A stretch of 64,000 nucleotides of DNA from Candidatus Uhrbacteria bacterium (GCA_037131775.1 JBAXQK010000003.1:76439-140438), one strand, 5' to 3'. Counted from the stretch's first letter, positions 872-35,160 are shown. The notes: a model not told the origin generated them from the sequence alone. Translations and numbers: made by a program.

Positions 872-1601
872 AGGCGACGGCAAGGCGTTGTTTTTCTAAA
901 TCGTGTTCTCGTCTCGCAATGTCCGCGACGATCGCGTCCGCGTCCTTCGGCGCAACGAGGTTCTTTTTTTTGAACGCGCAGTCCTTTTGAACCGGACACA
1001 TCCAGCAGCGAGGCTTTCCCGGAATGCAGACGTACCGGCCGATCTTGACAAACACCTGGTTTACGAGGCGCATGACCTTTGTCGGCACGATCCTCAGCAA
1101 AGCCACCTCGGTCTTCTGCGGCGTCTTTGTCTTCACCCATCCTAGCCGATTCGTCACCCGGTGAACATGGGTGTCGACGGCAATGGACGGCGTGCCGAAG
1201 CAGCTCGCGACGACGACGCTCGCGGTCTTGCGGCCGACGCCGGGAAGATCGACGAGCTCGTCCATCGTGGACGGGACGAGACCGCCGTGGACTTCGACGC
1301 AGCGCTTCGCCAAGCCCGACAGGTTCTTTGCCTTCTGGCGATACATCCCGATCGTATTGATCTTCGCGGCAATCTCCGCGACCGCCGCCTTCGACAATGC
1401 CCCCATCGTCGGGAACGCTTCGAACAATCCAGGAAGCAGCTTCAGTACCTGCTCGTCGCGCGTCCGCGCCGAAAGAACGACGCCGACGACCGTCCGGTAC
1501 GGGTCGCCAAGCTCCATCGCGCCCGGATTCGGGAAGCGTCGCTTGAGCGTTCTTAGGATGCGTTCGATATCAGTCACACTCTTCTCGTTTCCCCTCCTCA
1601 T
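852..1601 (-). CDS. nth: endonuclease III (HhH-GPD glycosylase, 4Fe-4S)
   Basis: 249 aa. HhH-GPD region LPGVGRKTASVV; Cys cluster CIPGKPRCWMCPVQKDC. The start ATG at 1599-1601 lies in the loop of repeat-element copy 1. Confidence 0.85.
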   Translation of the reverse strand: MRRGNEKSVTDIERILRTLKRRFPNPGAMELGDPYRTVVGVVLSARTRDEQVLKLLPGLFEAFPTMGALSKAAVAEIAAKINTIGMYRQKAKNLSGLAKRCVEVHGGLVPSTMDELVDLPGVGRKTASVVVASCFGTPSIAVDTHVHRVTNRLGWVKTKTPQKTEVALLRIVPTKVMRLVNQVFVKIGRYVCIPGKPRCWMCPVQKDCAFKKKNLVAPKDADAIVADIARREHDLEKQRLAVAYGKHRS

Positions 1602-1632
1602 AGGGAGGAGGGGTCAGGGGTGGTTGTCGCGC
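1589..1632 (-). repeat. palindromic repeat element P, copy 1
   Basis: ttCCCCTCCTCatagGAGGAGGGGtcaggggtggtTgtcgcgc. 9-bp stem 1591-1599 / 1605-1613. Lies between the gpmI stop and the nth start. Confidence 0.85.
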
Positions 1633-1645
1633 TGATGGAAGGATG

Positions 1646-3232
1646 TCAAACCAACGGCGCCCCCGTCATCTCCTCCGGCTGCGGGATTCCCAGTACCGCG
1701 AGGATCGTCGGGGCAACGTCCGCGAGCATTCCCACCGGGGACATCAGCGACAAATCGCCGTCCGGAACCTCGCCGGCGAGCGACGGAATTCCCTCGAACT
1801 GCTTGCCGACGATCACGAACGGAACCGGGTTCGTGGCATGCTCCTTGTCGATGTCGCCGGTGCGGAGGTTCTTGAGCTCCTCGGAGTTGCCATGGTCCGC
1901 GGTTATGAACACCGCCCCGCCCTTCCCAAGCGTCGCGTCCACGACCTTCCCAACGGCGGCGTCGAGCGCCTCGTGCGCCTTCACCGTCGCGTCGAAGCTT
2001 CCCGTGTGCGCGACCATGTCCGCGTTCGCGAAGTTCATGATGACCAGGTCGTATTTGTCCGACTGGATCTCCTTCACGACGCGGTCGGAAAGCTCCACGG
2101 CGCTCATCGCCGGGGCAAGGTCGTAGGAGGCGACGTGCGGCGACGGGATCAGGACGCGGTCCTCGCCCGGGAACGGCTTCTCGTACGTTCCGTTCATGAA
2201 GAAGGTGACGTGCGCGTACTTCTCGGTCTCGGCAATGTGCAGCTGCCTCAGCCCGGCGTCGGAAACCACCTGTGCGAGCGTCTTCTGGATCTTGACCGGA
2301 GGATACGCGACCTCGGCCGGAATTCCCTCCTCGTACTCGACCATCGTCACGAACAGCAGGTTCTTGACGGGCTGTCGCGGAAACCGAACGAAGTCTGGCA
2401 ACACGAACGCCTTGGTAAGCTCGCGGGCGCGGTCGGGACGGAAGTTGAAGAAGATCGCGGCATCGTTGTCCTGGATCGTCGCGACCGGCGCGCCCGATGC
2501 GTCGACGATCACCGTCGGCACGAACTGCTCGTCGTATACCTCCTTCGCATAGCTTGCCTTGATCGCCTCGATCGGGTCCGTCGCCTTCTCGCCCGTCCCC
2601 TTCACCATCGCGTTATATGCCATCTCCTCGCGGTCCCACCGGTTGTCGCGGTCCATCGCGTAGAACCGCCCGCTCATGGACGCGATCTTCCCGACGCCCG
2701 TCTCCTTCATTTTCGCGAGCAGCGTCGTCACGAAGTCGATCCCCGCGTTGTAGATCGTGTCGCGCCCGTCGAGGATCGCGTGCACGGCGACGTTCGCGAT
2801 TCCCTCGCGTTTGGCAAACTCCAAAAGCGCGTGACAGTGCTCGTCCATCGCATGCACCCTTCCGCCACTCACGAGGCCGATCAGGTGGAGCGTCGACCCG
2901 TTCTTCTTTACGTGCTCGGCCGCCTTCAGGAACGCCGCGTTCTTGAAAAAGTCGCCGGCGACGATGTCGCGGTTGATGCGCGGGAACGTCTGGTAATACA
3001 CCCGTCCGGCCCCGATCGCGAGGTGCCCGACCTCCGAGTTCCCCATCTCGCCCCAGCTCAACCCCACCTCCTCGCCCGAGGCGCGGATGGTCATGGTCGG
3101 ATACGTCCGAATCAGCTGCTTCCACCGCGGCATGTTCGCGCGGGTGATGGCGTTGCCGTCGGAATCGGGCGCGACGCCGAAACCGTCGAGAATCATGAGA
3201 ACGGCGGGCCTTGGGCGGTTGGGGATATCCAT
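1646..3232 (-). CDS. gpmI: 2,3-bisphosphoglycerate-independent phosphoglycerate mutase
   Basis: ORF 1646..3394; conserved N-terminus starts at MDIPNRPRPAVLMILDGFGVAPDSDGNAI (ATG 3230-3232). C-terminus ...EEMTGAPLV then TGA stop. Confidence 0.9.
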   Translation of the reverse strand: MDIPNRPRPAVLMILDGFGVAPDSDGNAITRANMPRWKQLIRTYPTMTIRASGEEVGLSWGEMGNSEVGHLAIGAGRVYYQTFPRINRDIVAGDFFKNAAFLKAAEHVKKNGSTLHLIGLVSGGRVHAMDEHCHALLEFAKREGIANVAVHAILDGRDTIYNAGIDFVTTLLAKMKETGVGKIASMSGRFYAMDRDNRWDREEMAYNAMVKGTGEKATDPIEAIKASYAKEVYDEQFVPTVIVDASGAPVATIQDNDAAIFFNFRPDRARELTKAFVLPDFVRFPRQPVKNLLFVTMVEYEEGIPAEVAYPPVKIQKTLAQVVSDAGLRQLHIAETEKYAHVTFFMNGTYEKPFPGEDRVLIPSPHVASYDLAPAMSAVELSDRVVKEIQSDKYDLVIMNFANADMVAHTGSFDATVKAHEALDAAVGKVVDATLGKGGAVFITADHGNSEELKNLRTGDIDKEHATNPVPFVIVGKQFEGIPSLAGEVPDGDLSLMSPVGMLADVAPTILAVLGIPQPEEMTGAPLV

Positions 3233-3287
3233 AGCGTGGCCATTGTATGCGATCCGGGCAAAAGAAAAAAGGCGGGAGTGACCGCCT

Positions 3288-3698
3288 TCAGGGAGGGAGT
3301 TCGGCGAGTGCCCTGAGCGCGCGCTCGTCGTGGGGGCTCTTGGAAAGAACCTGTTTGAACGAGGAACGCGCCCCGTCCGCGTTTCCGAGCGCAAGCTGGC
3401 ACAGACCGACGTTGTACAGGGCCGGCAAGCTCTCGTCCCACTCGAACATCCGCTGGAACACCGCGATCGCCCCGTCGTAATCTCCGCGGAACTGACGCAC
3501 CTTGCCGAGACACATCTGCGCGTCCGCGTTGTGGCGGAGTGTCATGTCCTTCTCATTCAGACACTCGACGACGGAGGAAACCAGGTTGGAATCCACCTTC
3601 AGGAGCGGCTTTGCCCGGCGCCAGCGAGGCTCCGCGACCAGCTGCTCCCAGCAAAGAAACTCCGTCTTGTACCGTTCGGGATGCAAGCGCTTCTCCAT
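3288..3698 (-). CDS. TPR-repeat protein (short)
   Basis: The C-terminal part of ORF 3288..4115 is TPR-like (LGKVRQFRGDYDGAIAVFQRMFEWDESLPALYNVGLCQLALGNADGARSSFKQVL). Plausible start MEKRLHPERY at ATG 3696-3698; the upstream extension is Arg-rich junk. Confidence 0.5.
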   Translation of the reverse strand: MEKRLHPERYKTEFLCWEQLVAEPRWRRAKPLLKVDSNLVSSVVECLNEKDMTLRHNADAQMCLGKVRQFRGDYDGAIAVFQRMFEWDESLPALYNVGLCQLALGNADGARSSFKQVLSKSPHDERALRALAELPP

Positions 3699-3770
3699 CA
3701 GGTATCCAACGACGCCGGGAAGGTCCGGGCGAACCGCATCAGAAGTTTTCAACGCGCGTCTCCTTCTGCC

Positions 3771-3808
3771 AATGGAAAAACAAAAGCGGCAGGGCGCAAT
3801 CCTACCGC
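3771..3808 (-). terminator. rho-independent terminator after P-loop ATPase gene
   Basis: Minus RNA GCGGUAGG auugcgc CCUGCCGC (8 bp, one G.U), then UUUUGUUUUUCC. Confidence 0.7.
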
Positions 3809-3822
3809 GTTTTATTTTGATG

Positions 3823-4824
3823 TCAAGAGTTTTTAACGCGAGTTCGCACGAAGCGTTCGAACAGTTCCCCGTTCGCGCGATACGACCCGTCGCCGTCGCG
3901 CCGAAGATACCCGATGTCGAGCAGCGGCTGGACGCGAACCGGGTCCGCGTCGCCCGCCGCGACCCCGCCGTTTTCCGCGATCGAGCGGAACAGCGCGCGG
4001 TCTTCGTCGTCGAACGCGAAGTCATAGACCTTGCGGTAATGAGACAGCCCCTCGTCGGCCAGTTGCCGCATGGCGGTCTCGTTCCCGGAAAGCCGGTCGA
4101 CGTCGGCCGCGTCAAACGTCGCGTCGTCGCGCCAGAACGGCTTGGACGGGTCGAGAAGCGCCGAGCAAAGGAGCTGGACCTCGAGCGGGCGGCCTCCGGA
4201 AAGGCTGGCGAGGCGGTCGATGGCGGCGTCCGTGAACGCGACCGGGGTGCCGGCGAACGGGCGAAGGGCGACGAGACGAACCTCGTCCTTGGTGAGCCCG
4301 CGAACGAAGTGAGAGTCGTACCCGTCGAACGCGCGTCGCATCGTCTGGTCCGTGTCGCGCGTCCAGTGCGCGACCACCGCGAGGCGGACGCCGGGAACGC
4401 GAAGGCCGTCGATTACGACGAGGAGGTCGGGACGATCCGCCAGGGCGATCGCCTCGTCGATGACGATCGTGCGCTCGTTGCCGGACTGCCCATCGACGGT
4501 TTCCGCAAGCGATGTCCGAAAACTCTCCGCGGACAGTTCCGTCCCGTACGGGCCGACGTCCTCGTGGACGAACGGGCCCGGAAAATTTCGCCTCAACGCG
4601 TGCCCGAGGCTCGTCTTGCCCGCGCGCCAGACGCCTCGGATCACCACCGGCCGCCCCGCGCGCAGCGAGTCTGCAACCGCGCGCTCCTGGTCGAGCCGCA
4701 CGACGCTTTCGCGGACGAGCAGTCCGCGCTCATACCGACCCACGCGCTCCGAAAAAAACGACCGGCGTTCCTCAATGGAACGTCCGATCGCTTCCCGGGA
4801 TCCCTCGGCGAGCCCTTCGCGCAT
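3823..4824 (-). CDS. P-loop NTPase (AAA/ORC-like ATPase), function unknown
   Basis: Walker A GVWRAGKTSLGHAL; Walker B TIVIDEAIAL; 333-341 aa. Start MREGLAE (4824) or track start 4848, which overlaps the eno stop. Confidence 0.65.
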   Translation of the reverse strand: MREGLAEGSREAIGRSIEERRSFFSERVGRYERGLLVRESVVRLDQERAVADSLRAGRPVVIRGVWRAGKTSLGHALRRNFPGPFVHEDVGPYGTELSAESFRTSLAETVDGQSGNERTIVIDEAIALADRPDLLVVIDGLRVPGVRLAVVAHWTRDTDQTMRRAFDGYDSHFVRGLTKDEVRLVALRPFAGTPVAFTDAAIDRLASLSGGRPLEVQLLCSALLDPSKPFWRDDATFDAADVDRLSGNETAMRQLADEGLSHYRKVYDFAFDDEDRALFRSIAENGGVAAGDADPVRVQPLLDIGYLRRDGDGSYRANGELFERFVRTRVKNS

Positions 4825-4828
4825 ACCG

Positions 4829-6082
4829 TTACGAGACTTCCTCCTCAATCTCCATCAGCCGGTTGTACTTTGCCAGGCGCTCCGATCGCGACAGCGATCC
4901 CGCCTTGATGTACTCGGCGTTCACGGCGACGGCGAGGTCGGCGATGGTGGTGTCGGTCGTTTCTCCCGAGCGATGGGATACGGACACGGCGTATCCGCTC
5001 TGCTGGGCGAGCAGGATCGCGTCCATCGTCTCCGAGAGCGAGCCGATCTGGTTCACCTTGATGAGGATTGCGTTCGCGCACCCTTCCTCGATTCCCTGCC
5101 GCAGGCGCTCGGCGTTCGTCACGAAGAAGTCGTCGCCGACGAGCGCCATCTTGTCTCCGAGACGGTCGGTGAGCTTCTTCCATCCCTCCCAGTCGTCCTC
5201 GGCAAGGCCGTCCTCGAGCGAGACGATCGGATACTTCTTGGAAAGCCTGTCCCACATCGCGATCATCTGGTCGGACGTGAACGACGTGCCGTCGACCTTC
5301 AGGACGTAGCGCTTCGTCTTGGCGTCATAAAACTCGGACGTCGCCGGGTCCATCGCCAGCGTCACGTCCTTGCCCGGCACGTATCCCGCGTCCTTGATCG
5401 CCTGGACGATCGTTTTGAGCGCCTCCTCGTTCTTGGCCAGCTTGACCGCGAATCCGCCCTCGTCGCCGACGAGCGTCGAGAATCCCCTCTTCTTCAGGAG
5501 ACGGCCGAGCGCGTGGAACACCTCGGAGCCACAGCGGACGCGCTCTCGGAATTTCTTCTGCTGCGGAACGATCATGAACTCCTGGAAATCGAGAATCCAG
5601 CCCGCGTGCGCGCCGCCGTTCAGGATGTTCATCGTCGGGATCGGGAGACGGTAGGTCTTGTACTTCAGGTCGAATGCGCGGCGAAGGTACGCATACAGCG
5701 GCAGGCCGCTGGCATTGGCCGCGGCTCGGGCGCAGGCGAGCGAGACGCCGAGGATGGCGTTCGCGCCGAGTTTCGACTTGTTCGCCGTGCCGTCGAGAAA
5801 GATCATCCGCGAATCGAGCTCGCGCTGGGCAGACACGTCCATGCCGATGAGGACGGGCGCGATCTTCGCGTGCACGTTCTTCGCGGCCTTGAGCACGCCC
5901 TTCCCGCCGTATCGCTTCGCGTCGCCGTCGCGCAGCTCGAGTGCCTCGTGCGACCCCGTCGACGCGCCGCTCGGAACGGACGCGGATCCGGAAACGCCGT
6001 TGTCGAGAAGAACGGTCACCTCGAGCGTCGGGTTGCCGCGGGAATCAAGAATCTCGTGCGCGTGGATGGATTCGATTTTCAT
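4829..6082 (-). CDS. eno: enolase
   Basis: [54 protein letters not shown]... The long upstream extension in track ORF 4829..6505 is Arg/Ser-rich and rejected. ATG at 6080-6082. Confidence 0.93.
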
Positions 6083-6092
6083 AGTCGTGAGT

Positions 6093-7274
6093 TTACGATT
6101 CGAGCGCTTCGACTCCCGGCATCTTCTCCCCGGCGAGAAACTCCAGCATCGCTCCCCCGCCGGTCGAAAGGAGCGTGAACTGGTCCGCGACTCCGGCGGC
6201 TTCGACGGCGGGAATCGTGTCGCCTCCGCCGACGATCGTGACCGCCTTCTTGTTCGCGGCGATGGCGCGGGCGACGGCGGTCGTCCCCTTCGAAAACGCG
6301 TCCACCTCGCAGTAGCCGAGCGGGCCGTTCCACACGACCATCTTGGTTCCCTTGATTTCCTCGCAAAATCGTCGAATCGTGTCGGGCCCAAGGTCGACGA
6401 TCCGGTCGGTCTTGCGAACCGCGCCAATCGCGACCGTCCGGCAGGTCGCGTCCTTGCGAAGGCTCTGCGCGACCAGCATATCCGTCGGCAACCAGATCTT
6501 CTCACGGAATTTCTTCATCAGCTGCTCCGCGTCCTTCATGCCGTCCTTGTCCACCGCGGACTTGCCGATCTCGATCCCGTCCGCCACGAAGAACGCGTGG
6601 GCAAGCGCCCCGCCGACGAGCACACGGTCGGCCTCGGGGAGCAGGCGGCGCATCACCGGAATCTTGTCCGCCATCTTCAGCCCGCCCATGACCACCACGA
6701 ACGGGTGCCTCGGATGTGCCAAAACCTTCGCGAGCACCTCCACCTCGGACACAAGCTGCGGCCCCGCGTAGCCTGGAAGCTCGGAAGTGATGGCATCGAC
6801 GGAGGCGTGCGCGCGATGCGACACCGCGAACGCGTCGTTCATGTACAGGTCGCCGAGCTGGGCAAGCGCATGCGCGAGCGTCGTGGAGTTGCGCTCCTCG
6901 CCCGCGTCGAAGCGCACGTTCTCGAGCAGGACGACGTCTCCGTCCCTCATCGAGCGCACGAGCTTCTGCGCGAACGGACCGGCGATGTCGCGCGCGACCG
7001 GGACGTTGATCGACAGAAGCTCGGACAACCGTCGCGCGACCGGACGAACCGTATACGCGCTGATCTTCCGCCCGTTCGGCCGGCCAAGGTGCGTCATGAC
7101 CACGACCTTCGCCCCGCGCTGCCGCAGCCACTCGATATCCACAGCCGCCCTGGCAACCTTCCCATGCGGCCCGTCGACGACTTTCCCCTTTGCGACCGGC
7201 ACGTTGGCGTCAATTCTAAGCAACACCCGCTTCCCGGATAGATCCACACCACTGCGCAAAGTCCTCAAACGCAT
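6093..7274 (-). CDS. pgk: phosphoglycerate kinase
   Basis: 393 aa; [27 protein letters not shown]... Leaderless-type promoter immediately upstream. Confidence 0.93.
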
Positions 7275-13822: not shown

Positions 13823-14944
13823 TTAGCGAATAAACATCGCGTCCCCGAACGAGAAGAACCGGTATCCGAGACGGACGGCTTCCTCGTAGGCCGCGACGAC
13901 GTTCTCCCTCCCCGCGAACGCGGAGACGAGGACGAGGAGGGTGGACTTTGGAAGGTGGAAGTTGGTGATGAGGGCGTCGATGACCTTGAACTCGAAGCCG
14001 GGGGTGATGAACAGGTTCACGTCGGCGGAGAAACCGTCGGCTGGCAAAACGTCCCTGTCATTGCGAGGTCCGCAGACCGAAGCAATCTCATCGAGGGATT
14101 GCTTCGTCGTTGAGACTCCTCGCAATGACGACGCGACGCCCTCGAGGACGCGGACGGTCGTCGTTCCAACCGCGACGATGCGACGACCTTCCCGCTTCGC
14201 CGCGTTGATGCGACCAGCCGTCTCCGCGTCGATCGACACGAACTCGGCGTGCATCACGTGTTCCTCGAGCGTCTCGGTCTTTACCGGGCGGAACGTGCCG
14301 ATCCCCACATGGAGCGTGACGAACTCGAACTGGACGCCCTTCGCCTTGAGCGTCGCGATCAGCGCGTCGGTGAAGTGGAACCCCGCGGTGGGCGCCGCGA
14401 CCGAGCCGACGGTCTTCGCGTACACGGTCTGATACTCGTCGAGCTTCGCTGGCGCCTTGTCCACGTACGGCGGAACCGGGATCTCGCCGTGCGCGTCCGC
14501 GAACGCGATGACCTCGTCGACCGTCGCGTTCATCTCGAGCGTCACGACCCCATCGTCCCTCTTCTCGACGACGACCGCGACCATCCCACGCAGATCGATC
14601 CAGTCCCCAAGGGCGACCTTCTTCCCAGGCCGCACCATCGCCGACCACCGCGTCCCTTCCCCGCGCAGCAGGAATACTTCGAGGCCGATCTTCTTTCCAG
14701 GGACGCTGACCGTCCCGCTCAATCGTGCCTTGAAAACTTTTGTGTTGTTCATCACCAGCACATCGCCCGCGACCAACTCGTCGACGATCTCCCAGAACAC
14801 CTTGTGCATACGCTCCCCCGACGCACGATCCAGCACCAACATTCGCGACGAATCGCGCGGGGAAACCGAAAACTGGGCGATTTGCTCGGGCGGGAGGTGG
14901 TAGTCGAACAGGGAGATGGGTGTGGGCACAAGGCGTAACGACAA
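13823..14944 (-). CDS. queA: S-adenosylmethionine:tRNA ribosyltransferase-isomerase
   Basis: Aligns with QueA from ...PISLFDYHLPPEQIAQ to ...RFFSFGDAMFIR. Track ORF 13823..15412 has a spurious N-terminal extension overlapping the divergent gene. Start uncertain: TTG 14944, GTG 14929 or ATG 14989. Confidence 0.8.
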   Translation of the reverse strand: MSLRLVPTPISLFDYHLPPEQIAQFSVSPRDSSRMLVLDRASGERMHKVFWEIVDELVAGDVLVMNNTKVFKARLSGTVSVPGKKIGLEVFLLRGEGTRWSAMVRPGKKVALGDWIDLRGMVAVVVEKRDDGVVTLEMNATVDEVIAFADAHGEIPVPPYVDKAPAKLDEYQTVYAKTVGSVAAPTAGFHFTDALIATLKAKGVQFEFVTLHVGIGTFRPVKTETLEEHVMHAEFVSIDAETAGRINAAKREGRRIVAVGTTTVRVLEGVASSLRGVSTTKQSLDEIASVCGPRNDRDVLPADGFSADVNLFITPGFEFKVIDALITNFHLPKSTLLVLVSAFAGRENVVAAYEEAVRLGYRFFSFGDAMFIR

Positions 14945-14990
14945 ATGAGTGAGTCCGTTGTAGACTGCGATTAATCTAACAGCCAATCGT

Positions 14991-15755
14991 ATGAACATCA
15001 AGCAATCCGCCTCGACCCTCGTCATCCTGGCCGCCGTCGCGCTCGTGGGCGCCGGGTGCCTTTCCTCGTCGAAGCCGGGAGAGACGAGGCCGATCGTCTC
15101 GGCGAAACCGACGCTCAACGTTCCTCCCGAGGTTCTCGGACAGGACACGCCGAGCGTCGCGCGACAGGAAACCACGACCACCTTCGCCACTGGACCGGAC
15201 GGATCGATGGTGACCACCGTCTCCGAAGATACGACGACGGTTCGCGACGCCACGTCGGGACTGACGTTCTCCGTTCCGACGTCGCTTGGGGAGATAAGAA
15301 CGCAGGATGAGAACGGATTCGGGACGGAGGGGACGAAGAGCGGGGATGGCAGTTCCGCGGACTGTCTCGTCCAGCGGTCGTTCCTGGCCGGCGACGTCAT
15401 CTTCCTCACCAACTACGACACCTTCCAGTGCGACCAGCCGGGACGCGGAGGATACTGGGGCGACCAGGCGCAAGCGTTCAAAACCGAAGCGGACATTGAG
15501 AAGTGGTGCAAAGCAAAGGACGCGTGCGACACGTTCGCGAACAAGAGCGGGATCACGATCTATCACGCCTTCACGAGGTCCGTGGAAGAGTATGGGACAA
15601 CCTATGCCGAAATCGACGAATACGGGGCCTGGAACGCAGAACGGTCCGTCCACGGCGTGCTCTTCTCGAACGAGGGCTTCGTCCAGGCGGGCGCCGGCAG
15701 ACAGCTGGAGACGCTGAAATCGATCGTCGATTCCCTGTCGTTCTACGTGGAATAA
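14991..15755 (+). CDS. secreted lipoprotein, unknown function
   Basis: MNIKQSASTLVILAAVALVGAGCLSS... signal peptide + Cys; GC3-rich; Cys pairs WCKAKDACD. Preferred over the antisense ORF 14976..15785. Confidence 0.6.
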   Translation: MNIKQSASTLVILAAVALVGAGCLSSSKPGETRPIVSAKPTLNVPPEVLGQDTPSVARQETTTTFATGPDGSMVTTVSEDTTTVRDATSGLTFSVPTSLGEIRTQDENGFGTEGTKSGDGSSADCLVQRSFLAGDVIFLTNYDTFQCDQPGRGGYWGDQAQAFKTEADIEKWCKAKDACDTFANKSGITIYHAFTRSVEEYGTTYAEIDEYGAWNAERSVHGVLFSNEGFVQAGAGRQLETLKSIVDSLSFYVE

Positions 15756-19850: not shown

Positions 19851-19881
19851 CAACGAAAAAGCCGGACGAACTTCGCCCGGC
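19851..19881 (-). terminator. terminator for the DUF3048-like gene
   Basis: Minus RNA GCCGGGCGAAGUUCGUCCGGC, then UUUUUCGUUGG. Confidence 0.6.
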
Positions 19882-19884
19882 CTC

Positions 19885-19932
19885 GTCGCGACGACCACCC
19901 CTGTCCCCTCCTGCCTATCAGGAGGGGGAACG
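19885..19932 (+). repeat. palindromic repeat element P, copy 3 (inverse orientation, compensatory C/G swap)
   Basis: gtcgcgacgaccacccctgtCCCCTCCTGcctatCAGGAGGGGgaacg. This is the reverse complement of copy 1 except for a compensated stem position. Confidence 0.85.
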
Positions 19933-19934
19933 TT

Positions 19935-21050
19935 TTAGGGGGAGGACTCGGCCACCGTTACGTCGCTCTCGTCCGCCGCGACCTCGATCCAGGAGTTTCC
20001 CGCGTTCATCGCGATCTCCCTCCCGTCCTTGTCGTAGAACGCAAGTCGCTCGCTCGCGGACTGTTTCTTCCAGGTCGCGTCGATCGTCGCGCCGTCCTGG
20101 AGAACCCACGCCTTCCCTTCTCCCGTCGTGCGGATCTTGCGCCGTCCGACCGCGTCGAGGACCGACACGTCAGTGACGATCACCGCGACGTTATTCGCCG
20201 AGACGCGCGTGCCGTCCTGCGTGACAGTCTTGCGGCCGCCTTGGGCGCGGAGATAGGTATTCGTCGCGGTATCGTATGTCCACATTGCGACGTAGAGGTC
20301 GGAATTGAATCGGACGGAGATCGAGTTCTGCCAGACGGCGTCGGGCGCGGCGTCGGTCGACCCCGGCGTGACGAACGTCTTGGCGCCGTCCTTGAACTTC
20401 CACACCCCGTACAGCACGTCCGACGCCGTTCCCTTCTCCTCGGCCTTCGCAACCGCGGCCGCGAGCAGGTCCGTCGACGTGTAGGCATTGTGCGGCGCCG
20501 ATCTGTCGGCGGACCTCCAGAAGCTGTTGCCGTGGGAGAATTCGTTCAGGTCAAACGTTCCCGTCGAGCCGATGAGCGCGAGGGCGTCGTTGGAACCGCC
20601 GACGTGGGCGTAGAGCGCGTCGAACTCGCTGGCCCAGTCGACGAAGTACGGCCGGGCCGATCGGACGGGACCGATCTTGTCGACCTTGGCGTCGGCCGAG
20701 AAGAACGCCTCGAACCTCGGGATCGCGGCCTCGACCGGCGCCTCGATGACGAGGAAGGCTTTGTCGATGCCGCTCTGGGGCCAGGCATCGACGGAATTAT
20801 CGATCATGACGGCGTAAACGCGAGGGAGAATGTCGACGGGCTCGACGATCGGGAGACCGGTGAGGACGTCCCGGAATGTCGGTTCGGACGGGGCGATGAC
20901 CTCACCCTGTCCCTCTCCTTTTGAAGGAGAGGGGAGCTCGGCGAGCGGGGTGACGTGCCAACGCCATGCGATGAAAACAAACGCAAGCGCCAGAATGATG
21001 GCGCCTGCGATTGCGTGCTTGCGGGTGAATTTACTTTTTGGCCGGGGCAT
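19935..21050 (-). CDS. secreted/membrane-anchored protein, DUF3048(YerB)-like
   Basis: N-terminal signal anchor KHAIAGAIILALAFVFIAWRW. The track start 21131 overlaps rplY; a later Met (about 21050) is more likely. Confidence 0.55.
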   Translation of the reverse strand: MPRPKSKFTRKHAIAGAIILALAFVFIAWRWHVTPLAELPSPSKGEGQGEVIAPSEPTFRDVLTGLPIVEPVDILPRVYAVMIDNSVDAWPQSGIDKAFLVIEAPVEAAIPRFEAFFSADAKVDKIGPVRSARPYFVDWASEFDALYAHVGGSNDALALIGSTGTFDLNEFSHGNSFWRSADRSAPHNAYTSTDLLAAAVAKAEEKGTASDVLYGVWKFKDGAKTFVTPGSTDAAPDAVWQNSISVRFNSDLYVAMWTYDTATNTYLRAQGGRKTVTQDGTRVSANNVAVIVTDVSVLDAVGRRKIRTTGEGKAWVLQDGATIDATWKKQSASERLAFYDKDGREIAMNAGNSWIEVAADESDVTVAESSP

Positions 21051-29142: not shown

Positions 29143-29145
29143 GCC

Positions 29146-29234: not shown

Positions 29235-29310
29235 ACAATTTCACTAACTAACATAGCAATGGTAGCCACCGGGCCACAAACCCCTTGGAATCCATTCAAA
29301 CAAAACTGCT

Positions 29311-29733
29311 ATGGCAAAGAAACTCATTACGCAGGTTAAGCTTCAGATCCCGGGTGCGGCTGCGACCCCGGCCCCGCCGGTCGGTCCGGCGCTCGGTCAG
29401 CACGGGCTGAACATCGCCAGCTTCGTGAAGCAGTTCAACGACGCGACGCAGAACCGCCGCGGAGAGACGGTTCCGGTCATCATCAACGTGTACGAGGACC
29501 GCAGCTTCGACTTCATCATGAAGGTGGCCCCGGCCTCCGGACTCATCGCGAAGGCCGCCGGCATCGCGAAGGGATCGGGCAAGCCGCTCACCGAGAAGGT
29601 CGGCAAGATCACGCAGGCCCAGCTCCGCGAAATCGCCGAGAAGAAGCTCCCGGACCTCAACACCTCGGACATCGACGCCGCCATGAAGATTATCGCCGGA
29701 ACGGCGCGCCAGATGGGAGTGGACATTGTCTAA
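29311..29733 (+). CDS. rplK: 50S ribosomal protein L11
   Basis: [35 protein letters not shown]... Confidence 0.95.
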
Positions 29734-29750
29734 ATTTAGGCAGAAGGCTG

Positions 29751-29819
29751 AAAGGCATTAGGCTTAAGGGTTTACAGCCCGGCGGACTTACGCCTTAAGC
29801 CTTAAGCCTTAAGCCTGAA
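29751..29819. repeat. hairpin from tandem heptads (GCCTTAA x3.5 with inverse AGGCTTAAGG arm)
   Basis: aAGGCTgaaAGGCattAGGCTTAAGGgtttacagcccggcggacttacGCCTTAAGCCTTAAGCCTTAAGCCTgaa. Between the rplK stop and the small membrane ORF. Confidence 0.8.
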
Positions 29820-29822
29820 CAT

Positions 29823-30188
29823 ATGACCAAAGGAGGATCGATCATTCTCAGAATCTACTTCTCGCTCGTGGCGTTCGTGACCCTGATGATTCTTATCTTC
29901 TCGGTTTCGGACCTCATCAACATCGTGCTGAAGACCTACGTGTTCACCGCCGCGGACCGCCCGGCGTACACGAGCTACTGCGACCTCACCACGCAGACCC
30001 AGGCGCAGTGCGACACGCAGAAGAAGAATGACGAGGAATCGTCCATGGCCGTCAAGCAGCAGGACGCCGTCCGCGACATCGCTCTCCTCCTCGTCGCTTC
30101 CCCGCTGTTCTGGCTCCACTTCCGTGTCGTGTACCGAGATCTGATGGGAGACAAGGAAGAGGAGAAGAACGACAAGAAAAAAGCTTAA
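29823..30188 (+). CDS. small membrane protein (121 aa, 2 TM), unknown; inserted between rplK and rplA
   Basis: MTKGGSIILRIYFSLVAFVTLMILIF...VRDIALLLVASPLFWLHF... plus a K/E-rich tail. Confidence 0.5.
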   Translation: MTKGGSIILRIYFSLVAFVTLMILIFSVSDLINIVLKTYVFTAADRPAYTSYCDLTTQTQAQCDTQKKNDEESSMAVKQQDAVRDIALLLVASPLFWLHFRVVYRDLMGDKEEEKNDKKKA

Positions 30189-30236
30189 TACTAACCTGAT
30201 CGTGGAAGGCGAGAGCCGTTACACCACGCAAATCAT

Positions 30237-30920
30237 ATGGCAGGAAAGCGCTTTACGGAGGCCAAGAAGCTCGTCACGGACAAGAAGGTTTACTCGATCG
30301 TCGATGGAATCGCGCTCCTCAAGAGCTTCCCGAAGGCCGGCTTCGACGAGGGCGTCGAGCTGCACGTGAACCTCGGCATCGACCCGAGCAAGGGCGACCA
30401 GCAGGTGCGCGGAACGATCGCGTTCCCGCACGGAGTCGGAAAGTCCAAGCGCGTCGCCGTGTTCGTGGAGGCCGCCAAGGAAGCCGAGGCCAAGGCCGCG
30501 GGCGCCGACATCGTCGGAGGAGAGGACCTCATCACCGAGATCGCGGCCAAGGGCATCATCAACTTCGACGTGGCCATCGCCACGCCGGCCATGATGCCGA
30601 AGATCGCCAAGCTCGCGAAGCTCCTCGGACCGAAGGGCCTCATGCCAAACCCGAAGAACGACACCGTCGGCCCGAACGTCACCAAGATGATCGCCGAGCA
30701 GAAGGCCGGAAAGCAGAGCTTCAAGAACGACAACACCGCCAACGTCCACCAGATCGTCGGCCGCGTGTCCATGACGGACGCCCAGCTCAAGGAGAACCTC
30801 GCCCCGTTCGTCGACCAGCTCCGCAAGATGAAGCCGGCGTCCTCCAAGGGCATCTACTTCAAGAGCGCGACGCTGACGACCACGATGGGCCCGGGGATCA
30901 AGGTTGACCTCAACTCGTAG
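30237..30920 (+). CDS. rplA: 50S ribosomal protein L1
   Basis: MAGKRFTEAKKLVTDKKVYSIVDGIALLK... Confidence 0.95.
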   Translation: MAGKRFTEAKKLVTDKKVYSIVDGIALLKSFPKAGFDEGVELHVNLGIDPSKGDQQVRGTIAFPHGVGKSKRVAVFVEAAKEAEAKAAGADIVGGEDLITEIAAKGIINFDVAIATPAMMPKIAKLAKLLGPKGLMPNPKNDTVGPNVTKMIAEQKAGKQSFKNDNTANVHQIVGRVSMTDAQLKENLAPFVDQLRKMKPASSKGIYFKSATLTTTMGPGIKVDLNS

Positions 30921-30929
30921 TAGACAGAA

Positions 30930-30958
30930 ACACCCGCCGGCGATAAGCTGGCGGGTGT
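30930..30958 (+). terminator. hairpin after rplA (weak U-tract)
   Basis: ACACCCGCCGGC gauaa GCUGGCGGGUGU, then UAUGAUAUUG. Overlaps the dcd start region. Confidence 0.45.
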
Positions 30959-30959
30959 T

Positions 30960-31610
30960 ATGATATTGTCACGCCAAGACATCCTCGCGCAGATCGCCTC
31001 GGGCGGAATCCGGTTCACGCCGGAGATCGACCAGTTTCAGCTGCAGCCGCACGCGATCGACTTGCGACTGGGATACAAGTTTTTGATCCCGCGCAACTGG
31101 ACGTTCGACGAGAAGGGCCGCCGCGCGATCAAGGTCTCGATCGACGACGCCGATGCCCATCCCGAGCAGTTCGACGAGGTCATCCTCAAGCCCGGTCAGT
31201 TCTTCGACCTTCTCCCGAACGAGTTCGTCATCGGCACCAGCCTCGAGCGCATCGAGCTCAACGCGCCGAACCTGATGGCGATCCTCTTTCCCAGGACGTC
31301 GACGAATCGCCGCGGCATCGACCTGTCGCTCTCGGGAATCATCGACGTGGGCTACAAGGGCAACCTCATCTTCCCCATGAAGAACGAGGCGGGCAACCAG
31401 GTCATCCGCGTGTATCCGGGCGAACGAGTGTGCCAGGTGGTATTCGAGGAACTCAAGACCCCGTTAACGTCCGAGGAGGCGAATCTCCACGGGATGTCGG
31501 CGGCGAAGTACTCGGAAAGCGACGGCGCGTACCGGCTCGACAAGGATGACGAGCGGACGCTGCTGGTGGAAGGGAAATTGGACGAAATGAAAAAGCGGTT
31601 CGGGGTCTAG
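30960..31610 (+). CDS. dcd: dCTP deaminase
   Basis: ...IQPHAIDLRLG...; dUTPase-fold Dcd family. Confidence 0.8.
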   Translation: MILSRQDILAQIASGGIRFTPEIDQFQLQPHAIDLRLGYKFLIPRNWTFDEKGRRAIKVSIDDADAHPEQFDEVILKPGQFFDLLPNEFVIGTSLERIELNAPNLMAILFPRTSTNRRGIDLSLSGIIDVGYKGNLIFPMKNEAGNQVIRVYPGERVCQVVFEELKTPLTSEEANLHGMSAAKYSESDGAYRLDKDDERTLLVEGKLDEMKKRFGV

Positions 31611-31628
31611 CCCGAACCGCTTTTTTTG
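31594..31628. terminator. bidirectional terminator between dcd and subtilase
   Basis: aaaa AGCGGTTCGGG gtctag CCCGAACCGCT ttttttt. The dcd stop is in the loop. Confidence 0.85.
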
Positions 31629-31632
31629 ATGG

Positions 31633-34600
31633 CTACTGTGCGATCGACGCGATCTGCGTGCGCGTCTTGACCGCGGACAGGTCTACCGACTCCGGGACCG
31701 TCACGTCCTCGCCGCGCTCGTAGTGGGCGAAGAGGGTGGGCTCGAGGTCGATGACGTCGTCGGCCCAGGATGCGCCGAACATTTCCGTCGCGACGGATTC
31801 CGAGACGATGTGGCGGAGGAGGAAGGTTCCGTTCGCGTCCGCGTCCACGAGATAGACGTTCGGGTCGCTGACGATCTTGACGAGCACGACGCCTGGCTTC
31901 GGGAGCATCGGGGAGCCCAGCGCGAGGGTCGGCATGGTGGCGTCGGTGACCCAGACCACGTTGGACCACGAGTCCGTCCAGGTAAAGAAGGTCTGCGCGT
32001 TCCAGAAGACATGGCGTTTCCCGTCCGCGCCGACGTAGTACACGCTGCCGCTGCCGGACGATCGGATCAGCCAGCCGGGCTCCACCGCCGAGACGGACTG
32101 GGACGCCTGGCTGAACGGAGAGACACCCGTGTCCGACGTCACGGGGGCGACATGGCGGCCTTCCGCGTCAACTGCAATGCCGTTCTCGCGGATGGTCTCG
32201 GGGGAAAGCGACACGACGGACGGGACGGTCCCCATGCCCGACGAGGAAATTCCCGTTGCTGACGCAGCCGACGGCGTCGCGGCCGGAGCGCCGCCTCCCC
32301 CGCCCCCGCCCCCGCTGCTGCGGCGCGCGGCAACCGTGACGGTCACGACGTAATCGACCGTCGACTCGTCCTCCGCGAACACCGTGTACGTCACGGGGTC
32401 TGTAAAGTCCTGGGCGTCGCCCGTCGACGGAACGGTGAACCATCCCGTCGTCACGATGGTCGGAACGAGATCCGTCACGTCCGTGCCGAACGGGACGCGG
32501 AGCGAGATCGTCTTGGAGCCCTCGTGCACGCTGCCCGTGACGTCGAGGTCGCCGAAGTCGAAGGACTCGATCGCCTTGTCCGAGGTCGGAATCGTCGTCA
32601 CCGTGTAATTTACCAGCGTTTCGCCGTCCTCCGCGAAGACAGCCAGCCAGTCTCCGGTCACGACGGGGTCGGAGAGGAAATCCTCGAGCCAGTTCTGATG
32701 AGGCTCGTCCTTCGTCAGCGCGGCAAGGAAGTCGGCCTTCGACGTTCCGGGCGGAACGTCCGTAATCGTCTCGCCGTCCGTCCCTCCCGCGCTGACCGTG
32801 TACGTCTCCGACGAGATCGTCGCGACGGTGCTGGCCGGGAGCGCGAGGACGGCGAGGACGAAGTCCTTCGTGTCGGACGCGAGGCCGTTCGTGATCGTCG
32901 CGGTCATCGTGACCGTCGCGTCGCCATCCGCAAACGCCGGGCGGACGACCGTCTGCCCGTTGTCGGAAACGATGTCCGCGTCGCTCGAGGACCAGGTGAT
33001 CGTCGACGCGTTCACGGAACCGACCGATGGGAGCGGGTTCTCAAGCGCAACCGTCACGTCCGCCAGGTCGGCATTCTCCCCGAGGATCGCCTCGTCCGTC
33101 AGCCCGTCCTTGTCCGCCGCGACGAGAACCGTGTCCCCGACGGACAGGAGCGCGTTGTTCGCGTTGATCCTCTTTCCCGTCGTCGTCACCCCGTCGAGCG
33201 ACGCGATCGGATCGCCGGACGTCAGAATGATGTTCTTGACCTGCGCCGCCGTCAGGCTCGGATCATACCCTTCGATGAGCGCCGCGAGGCCGACCACGTG
33301 CGGGGTGGCCATCGACGTCCCGTTGAACCAATCGTACAGCGCGGCGGTGCCGTCCTGGTCCGGATAGGTGAGGAGCGTCACGTCATCGACCGCGCAGCCG
33401 TTCCCGCCGCCGACGTCCGCGTTCCCATTCGCGACCCAGCGGAATCGAAATTTGAAATTGTCCGTGAGATACTCCGCGGGAACATCGACGCTGGCGTATC
33501 CGATCGCCGATCCGGTCGGATCGCCCTCGAAGTCGTCCAGAACCACCTCGTCCCAGCGCGTGTATTCCTCATACGTGTCTCCCCCGTCGGCGCTAAACTC
33601 CAAGGCCATGTAGTCGGCCCAGTCGGTCAGGTCATACTCCGTATCGCACGCGGTCCAGAATTCCATCGTGGTCGCGCCGCCGCTCAGGTCGTACTCCGGC
33701 GACTCGACGGTCGTGTCCGCCGTCTGCGCGTACGGGGACGCAACGTCGCCCTTCAGGACGTTTCCCCAGCCGTCGCCAAGCCATTCCGTCGCCTCGGACA
33801 CGCCCCAGGCGTTGCCATCGCCCGCCGCCGCCCAGTCGCCCGGAATCGCGGCGGTGTCCACGCCCTCGAACGACTGCGAAAGCAGGCTCGTCCCGCTGTC
33901 ATCGACGACCGTACTGTAGATATCCGTGCCCGGCGCGCCGACGTCGACGTACCCGGAACCGTAGTCAGAGAAATACGCCAGTCCGTCCGACGAGTCGGTC
34001 GCCGCGACGGAAATGACGTTCGCGAGGCCGTCCCAGCAGTCCGTCGCGTGGCCGTAGTCGGAGGGAAGGTCGACGTACGAGGAGCCGTCATGCTCGCTCG
34101 CGTCGTTCCCGGCGGCCGCGACGAACAACCCCGGAAACCCGTCGATCGCCGCGTACAGCGCCTCGTCATACGCGCCGTCGCACGACCCGGCGGCCCCGCC
34201 CCAGCTCGCGTTGATCACCGTCGCGCCGTTATACGCCGCGAAGCTGATCGCGCGGACGATCTCGGCCGTGGTGAGCGATGACTTCAATGCCATGATCTTC
34301 GCGCGCGGCGCCACGCCGGCGATTCCCGTCGCGTTTCCTTTCACGGCCGCGATCGTCCCGGCGACGTGCGTCCCGTGCGTGCTCGTCGTCGGCAGAGGCG
34401 TCTTGTCGAGGTCCTCGAAGTCATAGCCATGGTCGCATCAGCCGAGCGCCGCGTTCGCGTCGTCCACGCAGCCCGTCCCGTCCCACATGTTCGCGGCAAG
34501 GTCCGGATGGTCGTACGCCACGCCGGTGTCGATGATCGCGACGATCACGTCCCCGTTCGTCCCCTCGTCGACCGCCCACGCCTCGGGCGCGTCGATGTCC

Positions 34601-35160
34601 GCACCCGTCGTCCCGGTGGTCCCGTTCACCGTCTGCCCGGTGTTGTCCAATCCCCAAAGCTCACCGCGAGACGGATCGTTCGACGAGATTTCCTGCGTCT
34701 CGTATTGAAAGTTCGGCTGGACGTACTCGACGCTCGGGTCGACGCTCAGTCGGGCAACTGCGCTTTCGACAGACTCGCTCCGACCCTTCGCGTCCTTTCT
34801 CGTCGAAAACACGGAGATGTTCCCCTTGGCGATGTCCTCTTTCTTTTCCAATCTCTTCGATTCCGCAAACTGGCGCGACTTGAGAGCGCCCGTCCTCGTT
34901 CTCAGGTTAACGGATCGATCTTTGAACTTCACGACGACCTCGCCCTCGACATAGTTCTTCTGCGCTTCCGGCCGTACTTTTTCCGTCGACTCCCCACGGT
35001 TCCCCTCCTCATAGGGAGGAGGGGTCAGGGGTGGTCGTCGCGCGTCATCGACGGAAGCGAGAACAAGCGTCGATGACGAGCCAACGACGAACGAGACGAT
35101 TCCCAGGACCAGCAATCCCCGGCACAGCGCTTTCACGGACGTTGTCATATGGATTCTCAC
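31633..35160 (-). pseudogene. S8 subtilisin-like serine peptidase, interrupted by one in-frame TGA at 34438-34440
   Basis: N-terminal ORF 34441..35160: signal peptide, I9-like propeptide, Asp motif VAIIDTGVAYDHPDL, ending ...NAALG then TGA. The same frame continues CDHGYDFEDLDKTPLPTTSTHGTHVAGTIAAV... into ORF 31633..34344, with the His motif HGTHVAG and the Ser motif GTSMATPHVVG. About 1175 aa if read through. Also carries repeat-element copy 2 in frame near the N-terminus. Confidence 0.8.
34999..35044 (-). repeat. palindromic repeat element P, copy 2 (inside subtilase coding region, in frame)
   Basis: ttCCCCTCCTCatagGAGGAGGGGtcaggggtggtCgtcgcgcg. Encodes ...RRPPLTPPPYEEGN... on the minus strand. 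Confidence 0.85.

Follow-up and report, generated by a model that had tools for sequence, protein, structure and literature searches.

The repeated element found in the window, by which is meant the whole 64-kb stretch of Candidatus Uhrbacteria DNA analysed here, is probably (at roughly 80%) a class II purine-motif intrastrand triplex motif, that is, a repeat of the kind known in E. coli as BoxC, PIT (potential intrastrand triplex; Hoyne/Maher 2000) or TMECO (Holder et al. 2015, PMC4666352), and would be maintained as selfish or near-neutral DNA. Since class II intrastrand triplex repeats have already been described under these names (PMC4666352), the element can no longer be regarded as "not explained by any annotated feature", as a previous sequence-only reading of this DNA had put it. 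The class, first seen in E. coli, is encountered here at gene junctions and in frame in genes of uncultured Uhrbacteria.

Three matches to the hairpin pattern CCCCTCCTS-N5-SAGGAGGGG are present in the window, a count that stays the same when three mismatches are allowed, against 0.12 expected by chance (100 shuffles, none of which reached three). The tail CAGGGGTGGTYGTCGCG is found as an exact match at the same three sites, and alignment delimits a common core of about 46 nt surrounded by unrelated flanks. The three copies that the sequence-only reading had placed at 1589, 19885 and 34999 do exist, but their description has to be amended: the 1589 copy is oriented like the 34999 copy and it is the one at 19885 that is reverse-complemented, while the contexts of the last two had been exchanged, the 19885 copy following the DUF3048 stop and the 34999 copy lying in frame in the subtilase. 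Likewise, the reported C/G to G/C swap in the stem is real and preserves the hairpin, but it is carried by the 19885 copy, concerns only the ninth, loop-closing pair, and is the sole compensatory change among copies 1-3. A fourth motif of the same architecture, missing from the earlier inventory, differs from them in sequence, is close to E. coli BoxC/TMECO, and encodes PSPSKGEGQGEV in DUF3048 (Table 1). The lineage-specific ends of the element, CGTT on the 5' side and CGTCGCG on the 3' side, are conserved, yet are left unexplained by the triplex model.

Table 1. Triplex-type motifs of the window and neighbouring features (parts of minus-strand motifs are listed in the 5' to 3' direction of that strand)
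Feature	Position	Strand	Parts and context
gpmI/nth junction	1575-1648	-	gpmI stop TGA 1648-1646; nth start GTG 1577-1575; copy 1 between
Copy 1	1586-1631	+	G-rich form on + strand; intergenic; CGTTT 1586-1590; pyrimidine arm CCCCTCCT(C) 1591-1599; loop ATAGG 1600-1604; purine arm (G)AGGAGGGG 1605-1613; linker TCA 1614-1616; putative third (reverse-Hoogsteen) strand GGGGTGGT 1617-1624; lineage-specific tail TGTCGCG 1625-1631
DUF3048 intrinsic terminator	19855-19882	-	GCCGGGCGAAGTTCGTCCGGC then T run; just downstream of copy 2
Copy 2	19887-19932	-	G-rich form on - strand; G..C closing pair; between DUF3048 stop (TAA 19937-19935) and DUF3048 terminator; CGTTC 19932-19928; pyrimidine arm CCCCTCCT(G) 19927-19919; loop ATAGG 19918-19914; purine arm (C)AGGAGGGG 19913-19905; linker ACA 19904-19902; putative third strand GGGGTGGT 19901-19894; tail CGTCGCG 19893-19887
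Fourth motif	20899-20933	-	nine triplets; sense, in frame, N-terminal linker of DUF3048; pyrimidine arm CCCTCTCCT 20933-20925; loop TCAAA 20924-20920; purine arm AGGAGAGGG 20919-20911; linker ACA 20910-20908; putative third strand GGGTGAGGT 20907-20899
Copy 3	34998-35042	+	G-rich form on + strand; inside subtilase ORF 34438-35160 (- strand); GGTT 34998-35001; pyrimidine arm 35002-35010; loop ATAGG 35011-35015; purine arm 35016-35024; linker TCA 35025-35027; putative third strand GGGGTGGT 35028-35035; tail CGTCGCG 35036-35042

The assignment to the class arises from the 3' tail, which the sequence-only reading had left uninterpreted. Read as a mirror image, the purine arm AGGAGGGG becomes the block GGGGTGGT once T is substituted for A, a relation that fits the pairing code of the antiparallel purine-motif triple helix (G*G-C, T*A-T); the class definition also allows A*A-T. 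Tested against the ITxF definition of the class II purine-motif intrastrand triplex repeat (PIT/BoxC/TMECO), all four window motifs display the class II block order of pyrimidine arm, loop, purine arm, 3-nt linker and third strand, and they satisfy the mirror rule in 8/8, 8/8, 8/8 and 9/9 triplets, the third block being antiparallel to the purine block; motifs with 8 or 7 triplets were absent from 30 Markov simulations of the window. The stems are perfect 9-bp Watson-Crick hairpins, the class minimum being 7-8 nt of complementarity, and the loops measure 5 nt (with the stem counted as 9 bp) and 3 nt (TCA or ACA), for class ranges of 3-6 and 3 nt. DNA folding of the motifs yields about -10 to -11 kcal/mol with z-scores of -2.6 to -4.7, and RNA folding of the hairpin -18 to -25 kcal/mol. 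In both cases only the hairpin is paired and the conserved 18-nt tail finds no Watson-Crick partner, so that its conservation needs a non-Watson-Crick explanation. Because this tail mirrors the purine arm, the whole unit is therefore read as a class II motif.

Covariation among copies from other loci points in the same direction. While the sequence-only reading had raised the question of whether stem changes covary in other copies, the changes seen in the fetched DNA involve both arms and the tail: the position of the A in the purine arm varies, and the T or A in the tail shifts along with it. The third strand thereby tracks the purine arm (GGGGAGGG with GGGTGGGG, AGGGAGGG with GGGTGGGT, AGGGGAGG with GGTGGGGT, AGGGGGAG with GAGGGGGT, AAGAGGGG with GGGGTGAT, and GGAGAGGG with GGGTGAGG). 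Among hairpins with non-canonical arms, 37/102 match their own mirror at 7/8 or better, compared to about 10% when the arms are permuted. This three-way covariation across variant families is stronger evidence than the single compensatory change.

In the 1.31 Mb of fetched DNA that served for the census, 237 class II motifs with all 8 triplets perfect, covering more than 20 types of arm and third strand, were detected, as against 3 motifs of class I order; the linker is 3 nt long in 190 of the 237, and the base facing the purine-arm A is T in 406 instances and A in 76. A genome scan with a pattern that omitted the left arm returned 134 matches; in 100 of these a perfect CCCCTCCT arm lies 3-9 nt upstream, and a further 13 show the arm with one mismatch. 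The motif of copies 1-3 is abundant in Bacteroidota and many other phyla and rare in viral contigs, and inverted pairs occur. Of the four window motifs, two have the G-rich form antisense to the local genes and two have it sense, the counts being about equal over all fetched loci, which show neither an orientation bias relative to genes nor a bias to local GC skew (75 vs 93, p=0.19).

Comparison of orthologous sites shows that the element is gained and lost. The gpmI/nth junction is filled in the window and in L161, L159 and L162 have the empty site, and an inverted pair from another subfamily occupies it in L160; in element-free relatives, the two genes overlap as GTGA or ATGA. At the 3' end of DUF3048, the site is filled in the window and in L157, empty in L156 and L158, where the stop abuts the terminator, and occupied by a decayed element in L155, while the terminator is conserved whether or not a relative has the element. 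In L157, the loop of the element contains the DUF3048 stop codon. The motif in the DUF3048 linker is found in one orthologue only (P0127/L157), the others having an unrelated linker of equal length. Since this linker, as well as ValRS in L120, shows a different sequence of similar length in motif-free orthologues instead of a clean gap, simple insertion may account for only part of what is seen.

Two of the four window motifs are intragenic and in frame, and at least a dozen such cases were verified in relatives; in terms of proportion, genes are estimated to contain about half of the Uhrbacteria copies, a figure obtained by crude ORF calling with about a dozen cases verified. The in-frame copy that had been claimed for the subtilase linker does exist, as copy 3: read antisense, it contributes the residues RPPLTPPPYEEG to the linker that separates the signal/TM helix from the pro-domain and is hypervariable among homologues, and this peptide is contained in the 100% identical NCBI protein P0001. 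Coding copies with homology on both sides were identified in KsgA, MurF, ValRS, a GT4 glycosyltransferase, TruB, Wzy_C, PMT_2, a class II aaRS and Cu-oxidase_4. Verified coding copies add 11-17 residues (translation of the complete 46-nt core would give about 15), and the element is read in at least four different frames and orientations, some copies being intergenic, with no conservation of the peptide.

The way in which such an element could work is deduced from these features. In the single-stranded state, the two arms would form the 9-bp Watson-Crick hairpin, along whose purine arm AGGAGGGG the block GGGGTGGT would fold back antiparallel, giving G*G-C and T*A-T reverse-Hoogsteen triples over 8/9 pairs; for the Uhrbacteria sequence, this folding and its formation in vivo are what we infer. 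The element would act as DNA and not as RNA, because the published view is that RNA does not form purine-motif triplexes and because the copies are unbiased with respect to transcription. Rather than a regulator, it would be selfish or near-neutral repetitive DNA that comes and goes at orthologous sites and persists only at positions where about 46-70 additional bases can be accommodated in the compact Uhrbacteria genome, namely from a stop codon to the next start codon, from a stop codon to a terminator, or in frame in disordered protein linkers and loops.

A structured RNA had been proposed by the sequence-only reading, with the SD-like arm paired with the anti-SD-like arm and the nth start sequestered at an ATG (1599-1601). 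In its general form, in which this pairing would control translation (of nth, for example), mRNA stability or 3'-end processing, such a role could draw on the strong RNA hairpin, on the GGAGG in the purine arm, on copy 1 lying just upstream of nth, between gpmI and nth as had been claimed, and on copy 2 standing in a 3' UTR before a terminator. We nevertheless consider it very improbable. The NCBI nth protein of the MAG (100% identical, 241 aa) and its orthologues start at GTG 1577-1575, which lies downstream, outside the hairpin, so that the proposed sequestration fails, and element-free relatives manage with overlapping gpmI and nth. The occurrence of copies in both orientations, at junctions and deep inside ORFs, is at odds with an RNA function, as are the unpaired tail and the Rfam search, which gave 0 matches in the window and tRNAs only in six related loci. 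The motif is moreover abundant in Bacteroidota, which make little use of SD pairing. Finally, PIT elements showed no terminator or promoter activity (PMC4666352). A fold of the G-rich half alone, with the runs GG, GGGG, GGGG and GG of purine arm and tail building a G-quadruplex and the C-rich arm being incidental, is still less credible. Four G tracts are indeed available in the 3' half, a two-tetrad quadruplex is in principle an alternative fold, and G-rich triplex sequences can compete with quadruplex folds (PMC4666352), but the pyrimidine arm is conserved equally with the G-rich half, a quadruplex does not require the mirror covariation of the arm A with the tail T/A, and the 18 imino signals recorded by NMR for TMECO correspond to a triplex, not a quadruplex (PMC4666352). 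The least probable origin, to which we give hardly any weight, is chance, an assembly artefact, or selection on the encoded peptide motif (PPLTPPPYEEG). The sequence does come from a metagenome assembly, in which short repeats can cause chimeric joins, and one copy is translated. However, three hairpins are seen against 0.12 expected, an independent JGI contig (L143) is identical to the window across copy 1, the filled sites of L161 and L157 come from other samples, and homology runs on at both sides of the coding copies, while the diversity of frames, the intergenic copies and the absence of peptide conservation speak against selection on a peptide.

The last alternative, which is improbable as well, concerns spread more than structure and is therefore partly compatible with the triplex explanation: the element would be a REP-like or IS200/IS605-like non-autonomous element, moved as ssDNA by a tyrosine (HUH/RAYT-type) transposase encoded elsewhere, and hairpin and asymmetric flank would be a protein recognition site, which the mirror relation would serve in place of a free-standing triplex. 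A short hairpin with sharp ends and an asymmetric conserved flank, the presence/absence polymorphism, the BIME-like inverted pairs and the triplex-independent ends CGTT and CGTCGCG are consistent with it, and so is the lack of target-site duplications, since in 27 copies the longest left/right flank repeat is distributed as in shuffled pairings. On the other hand, no transposase, integrase or HUH domain and no RAYT (Y1 transposase) gene was detected among the 58 ORFs of the 64-kb window, nor any IS near the element among the scanned window ORFs; there is no GTAG-type head, the copies are not extragenic only, and a mobile-element link of TMECO was not found by Holder et al. (PMC4666352). In many phyla, arm and tail covary according to the chemical triplex code, which is hard to credit to a single protein family. 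The suggestion of a small dispersed REP-like repeat under structural constraint is upheld, including its presence or absence at orthologous sites; the element is not a classical MITE or part of an IS, as target-site duplications were not observed and no IS was seen nearby among the scanned window ORFs. Under the intrastrand triplex reading, we suspect that spread follows an ssDNA-based route without target-site duplication. A bolder version, doubtful at present, holds that the CCCCTCCT-type repeat is active mobile DNA in CPR and many other phyla, its triplex being recognised by an ssDNA insertion mechanism that leaves no target-site duplication. If so, new protein linkers and gene boundaries would keep arising as the repeat spreads in frame into essential genes, as exemplified by the overlapping gene pairs that are split and by the DUF3048 stop of L157.

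With BoxC/PIT/TMECO, the element shares the succession of pyrimidine arm, 3-7-nt loop, purine arm, 3-nt linker and mirrored G/T(A) strand, the G/C-rich composition, a size of about 35 nt, the many dispersed copies with very conserved triplet arms and variable loops, the absence of strand bias, some inverted pairs, no associated transposase, and gain and loss between close relatives. For TMECO itself, the same block order with a 3-nt second loop, the lack of strand bias, the inverted pairs and a link to local genome variability were reported, and its ssDNA was shown by CD and NMR to be a stable triplex with a Tm of 70-82 C, although in vivo DMS footprinting revealed no stable triplex, the duplex winning once the complementary strand is present (PMC4666352). 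The fourth window motif (CCCTCTCCT / AGGAGAGGG / GGGTGAGGT) comes very close to TMECO in sequence, but the strict consensus CCCTCNCCC N3-6 GGGNGAGGG N3 GGGNGAGGG matches neither it nor copies 1-3, whose arms CCCCTCCT / AGGAGGGG / GGGGTGGT differ and which carry the extra conserved ends. Furthermore, the host is here a CPR bacterium, the sequence type of copies 1-3 is spread over many phyla, the triplex fold is predicted from sequence where that of TMECO was measured in vitro, and TMECO was reported as always intergenic in E. coli (PMC4666352), unlike the two window motifs located in ORFs. REP/BIME elements and their RAYT resemble the present case as short dispersed imperfect palindromes with an asymmetric flank, single or in inverted pairs, devoid of target-site duplications and thought to act as ssDNA hairpins; they differ by their GTAG-type head (the 5' end being CGTT or AGTT here) and by the triplex code, which is not a REP feature, while here the asymmetric flank mirrors one arm and copies also lie inside genes. 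Rickettsia palindromic elements are likewise palindromic selfish repeats inserted in frame in unrelated housekeeping genes of a small genome, with an added peptide segment tolerated by the host protein (PMC10969869), but they are Rickettsia-specific, about 100-150 bp long, unrelated in sequence and not triplex motifs, compared to about 46 nt and 11-17 residues here. Finally, H-DNA relies on the same reverse-Hoogsteen G*G-C and T/A*A-T chemistry, with a purine tract and a third strand in mirror symmetry, but consists of two blocks and forms from duplex DNA under supercoiling, whereas the element described here comprises three blocks on one strand and, since these include its own Watson-Crick partner, would fold from a single strand.

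Within the window, the pattern CCCCTCCTS-N5-SAGGAGGGG, searched with three mismatches allowed, is matched exactly three times (0.12 expected from dinucleotide-preserving shuffles), and a 17-nt tail, CAGGGGTGGTYGTCGCG, occurs as an exact match at the same three sites as the hairpin. The three copies previously read from the sequence are thus present, and their alignment delimits a core of about 46 nt with sharp edges and unrelated flanks. The earlier copy labels were nevertheless inconsistent with the coordinates, since the reversed, G..C-closed copy is the one at 19887 and not the one at 34998, and the contexts of these two copies had been exchanged. In addition, scanning the window for a three-block motif of any sequence recovered these copies and a fourth motif, while none was obtained in 30 Markov simulations of the window. 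The element is a real, non-random feature.

Positions of the triplex motifs and of neighbouring features (L-numbers are fetched loci from related or other genomes)
Feature	Locus	Position	Strand	Description
Copy 1	window	1586-1631	+	gpmI/nth junction; same orientation as copy 3
Copy 2	window	19887-19932	-	reverse-complemented, G..C closing pair; after DUF3048 stop
Copy 3	window	34998-35042	+	in frame in subtilase, encodes RPPLTPPPYEEG; same orientation as copy 1
Fourth motif	window	20899-20933	-	CCCTCTCCT-tcaaa-AGGAGAGGG-aca-GGGTGAGGT, nine perfect triplets; previously unreported
Last DUF3048 codons	window	19933-19955	-	GAGTCCTCCCCCTAAAAC, beside copy 2
Subtilase TGA	window	34438-34440	-	in frame, ALG*CDHGYDF
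Longest ORFs of queA and enolase	window	13826-15412 and 4832-6505 (-)		upstream overshoot of about 140-165 codons
gpmI-nth junction	L160	2304-2500		two inverted motifs of another triplex subfamily
ValRS site	L044	6290-6440		triplex element
ValRS site	L120	6190-6260		other palindrome of similar length, TTCCCAGGGACTTTAGT...ACTAAAGTGGCTGGGAA
Second GT4 glycosyltransferase	L152	7460-9562		element in gene
Motif present three times	L051	3687-4047		spacing 171 nt; flanks identical or nearly so
Motif present three times	L114	1896-2346		spacing 258 and 174 nt; flanks similar
Repeat unit of about 450-480 nt	L127	2380-2960		contains triplex element
Repeat unit of about 450-480 nt	L142	590-1140 and 4440-5020		contains triplex element

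In the Uhrbacteria lineage, the consensus of the element reads CGTTTCCCCTCCTC-ATAGG-GAGGAGGGG-TCA-GGGGTGGT-CGTCGCG, with a closing pair that varies between C..G and G..C, each being found in several copies. RNA and DNA secondary-structure predictions pair the 9-bp hairpin alone and leave the conserved 18-nt 3' tail unpaired, and a check of both strands by hand found no Watson-Crick partner for it. The tail GGGGTGGT is the mirror of the purine arm AGGAGGGG with every A replaced by T, a relation that would explain this segment. It matches the antiparallel purine-motif triple-helix code, G*G-C plus T*A-T, and the order of the blocks (pyrimidine arm, loop, purine arm, 3-nt linker, third strand) fits as well. 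The ends CGTT and CGTCGCG are conserved yet lie outside what a triplex accounts for.

Further support for this code comes from other genomes. A scan of one genome per species with the pattern AGGAGGGGNCAGGGGTGGT, of which the left arm forms no part, gave at least 119 matching loci, the matches listed belonging to Bacteroidota, Acidobacteriota, Planctomycetota, Armatimonadota, Nitrospirota, Proteobacteria, Firmicutes and several CPR lineages. A perfect CCCCTCCT arm stands 3-9 nt upstream in 100 of the 134 matches listed, and one with a single mismatch in 13 more. Besides, the same loci contain sister families whose purine-arm A is shifted, with the T or A of the tail shifting in step, as in the arm/tail pairs GGGGAGGG with GGGTGGGG, AGGGAGGG with GGGTGGGT, AGGGGAGG with GGTGGGGT, AGGGGGAG with GAGGGGGT, AAGAGGGG with GGGGTGAT, and GGAGAGGG with GGGTGAGG. 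Of 102 hairpins whose arms are non-canonical, 37 agree with their own mirror at 7 or more of 8 positions, compared to about 10% with permuted arms. The 1.31 Mb of fetched DNA contains 237 perfect 8-triplet motifs in class II order, 190 of them with a 3-nt linker, against 3 in class I order. Opposite an A of the purine arm, T was counted 406 times and A 76 times in this DNA, a preference that speaks for selection on the G-rich strand and on the purine motif. For a triplex of the pyrimidine motif, the C-rich strand would have to carry T at this place; such a triplex was rejected, as it would require A*A-T mismatches and protonated C. Taken together, this three-way covariation, seen over many phyla, argues for the triplex code on sequence grounds alone.

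At L051 and L114 (Flavobacteriales MAG), where it occurs three times per locus, the motif belongs to a longer repeat unit, tandem or clustered. Another unit, found in three copies at L127 and L142 with 84% identity and long perfectly conserved blocks, matches neither Rfam nor Pfam, is absent from the window, and may represent a larger repeat or a non-coding RNA of unknown kind.

The gpmI/nth junction illustrates how such elements come and go. The ATG in the loop of copy 1 had been taken as an nth start sequestered by the hairpin; the real start is the GTG at 1577, and the protein is 100% identical to an NCBI protein of a Candidatus Uhrbacteria MAG (142.6-kb contig). Two related genomes lack the element, and their gpmI and nth genes overlap (GTGA or ATGA), while L161, another relative, carries this same element at the junction. 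In L160, which is closest by nth identity (90%), the junction instead holds a BIME-like inverted pair, which resembles the type A plus type B pairs of the E. coli TMECO repeats. A metagenome scan with the lineage-specific tail gave 35 loci, about 25 of them from one JGI sample, of which one contig is identical to window positions 1-4162. At the DUF3048 3' end, two relatives have a terminator directly after the stop and no element, a third (L157) has the element with the DUF3048 TGA stop within its loop, and in a fourth (L155) the copy is decayed and interrupted. The filled, empty and decayed sites of copies 1 and 2 show gain and loss at orthologous positions, one junction having been colonised repeatedly. 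The last DUF3048 codons beside copy 2, which are missing from the L157 orthologue, look like a partial duplicate of the 5' part of the element (AGTTCCCCCTCCTGATA), suggesting slippage or partial duplication.

Residence in genes is also observed. The in-frame position in the subtilase, claimed earlier for another copy, is that of copy 3. Like the fourth motif, this copy occupies the variable linker of a secreted protein, after its signal or TM helix. The nearest subtilase homologues are about 57% identical and vary in linker length, so that copy 3 has no clean empty-site comparison. The subtilase is divided by an in-frame TGA into ORFs of 240 and 903 aa in the same frame; NCBI annotates a 236-aa N-terminal fragment only, and the fragment is 100% identical to an NCBI protein of a Candidatus Uhrbacteria MAG. 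Since homologues have a conserved Gly at this position (LGGC.HGYD), the TGA looks like an altered GGA; it could mark a nonsense mutation or pseudogene, but a sequencing error and recoding are candidates too.

In related Uhrbacteria contigs, coding copies were judged by homology continuing on both sides of the element. They were found in KsgA (11 extra residues between domains), MurF, ValRS (between the catalytic and anticodon-binding domains), a GT4 glycosyltransferase with two copies, a second GT4 glycosyltransferase, TruB, a Wzy_C ligase, PMT_2, a class II aaRS and Cu-oxidase_4. Three of the six consensus frames are open, and coding copies use them as RPPLTPPPYEEG, SPPHREEGSGVV and PLLMGRRGQGWS; a fourth is seen only where the linker TCA is changed to GCA or ATA, which abolishes a TGA stop. 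We put the intragenic share of the Uhrbacteria copies at about half, an estimate based on crude ORF calls with about a dozen cases verified. In two comparisons, the motif-free orthologue has a different sequence of similar length and not a gap. At the ValRS site, the L120 orthologue, 89% identical, has another palindrome where L044 has the triplex element, so the same loop hosts two unrelated palindromic inserts.

Several other readings of the element were considered. Shine-Dalgarno sequestration or a structured RNA, as proposed in the sequence-only reading, is not supported, as copies show no orientation bias relative to genes, either between them (same/same 26 versus opposite/opposite 28) or within them (sense versus antisense 30 versus 25 and 10 versus 13), and as Rfam at gathering thresholds gave no match for the window and tRNAs only for six related loci. 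Strand bias relative to local GC skew is likewise lacking (75 versus 93, p=0.19). As to a transposon, no target-site duplication was detected: over 27 copies, the longest substring common to the 20-nt flanks on either side agrees with a shuffled control, and an apparent GTNTGAC repeat around copy 1 could thus not be generalised. The 58 window ORFs, housekeeping or unknown, contain no transposase, integrase or HUH domain (Pfam E<=1e-5), and 2.9 million viral contigs gave just 3 matches. Selection on a peptide motif was rejected given the translation of the copies in several frames, and an assembly artefact given the agreement of independent assemblies.

For annotation, these 46-nt units matter in that they create false N-terminal extensions, as with the loop ATG upstream of nth, can provide stop codons, and add short Pro/Gly/Glu-rich segments to proteins (about 12 residues across the triplex motif). 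The longest ORFs of queA and enolase also overshoot the Pfam domain and the orthologue lengths upstream; in this genome of 62% GC, starts taken from the longest ORF are unreliable, that of nth likewise. Besides, closely related uncultured genomes, in which the same gene junctions are filled, empty, decayed or independently occupied anew, make the locus and its relatives valuable as a natural data set, as do the three-way covariation and the tolerance of the element in frame within essential genes.

Under the name BoxC, intrastrand triplex repeats have been on record since the 1990s, and we know of no function or mechanism of spread found for them to date. Literature searches with the raw element strings returned irrelevant eukaryotic matches only, and those on BoxC/PIT/TMECO the paper of Holder et al. 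alone. These authors described bacterial intrastrand triplex repeats, chiefly the E. coli BoxC/PIT/TMECO, CCCTCNCCC N3-6 GGGNGAGGG N3 GGGNGAGGG, a class II purine motif (Holder et al. 2015, PMC4666352). As single-stranded DNA, TMECO forms a very stable triplex by CD, with 18 NMR imino signals and a Tm of 70-82 C, but returns to duplex in the presence of the complementary strand; in vivo DMS protection was not observed, and RNA, according to the same authors, does not form purine-motif triplexes (PMC4666352). TMECO has no strand bias, no promoter or terminator activity in work preceding theirs and no transposon link, frequently occurs as inverted pairs, and marks loci differing between strains (PMC4666352). 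Given the code, the covariation and this E. coli precedent, we infer that the window sequence may fold likewise. Its element shares the architecture of TMECO with a different sequence, whereas the fourth motif is almost identical to BoxC. While TMECO was reported as always intergenic in E. coli (PMC4666352), the window lineage has in-frame coding copies, resembling in this the behaviour of Rickettsia palindromic elements, and a very compact CPR genome tolerates them in essential genes, which E. coli does not show. The element represents, in a CPR host, a new sequence family within the known intrastrand-triplex (BoxC/PIT/TMECO) class, distinguished by its in-frame residence in genes and its clear empty and filled orthologous sites.
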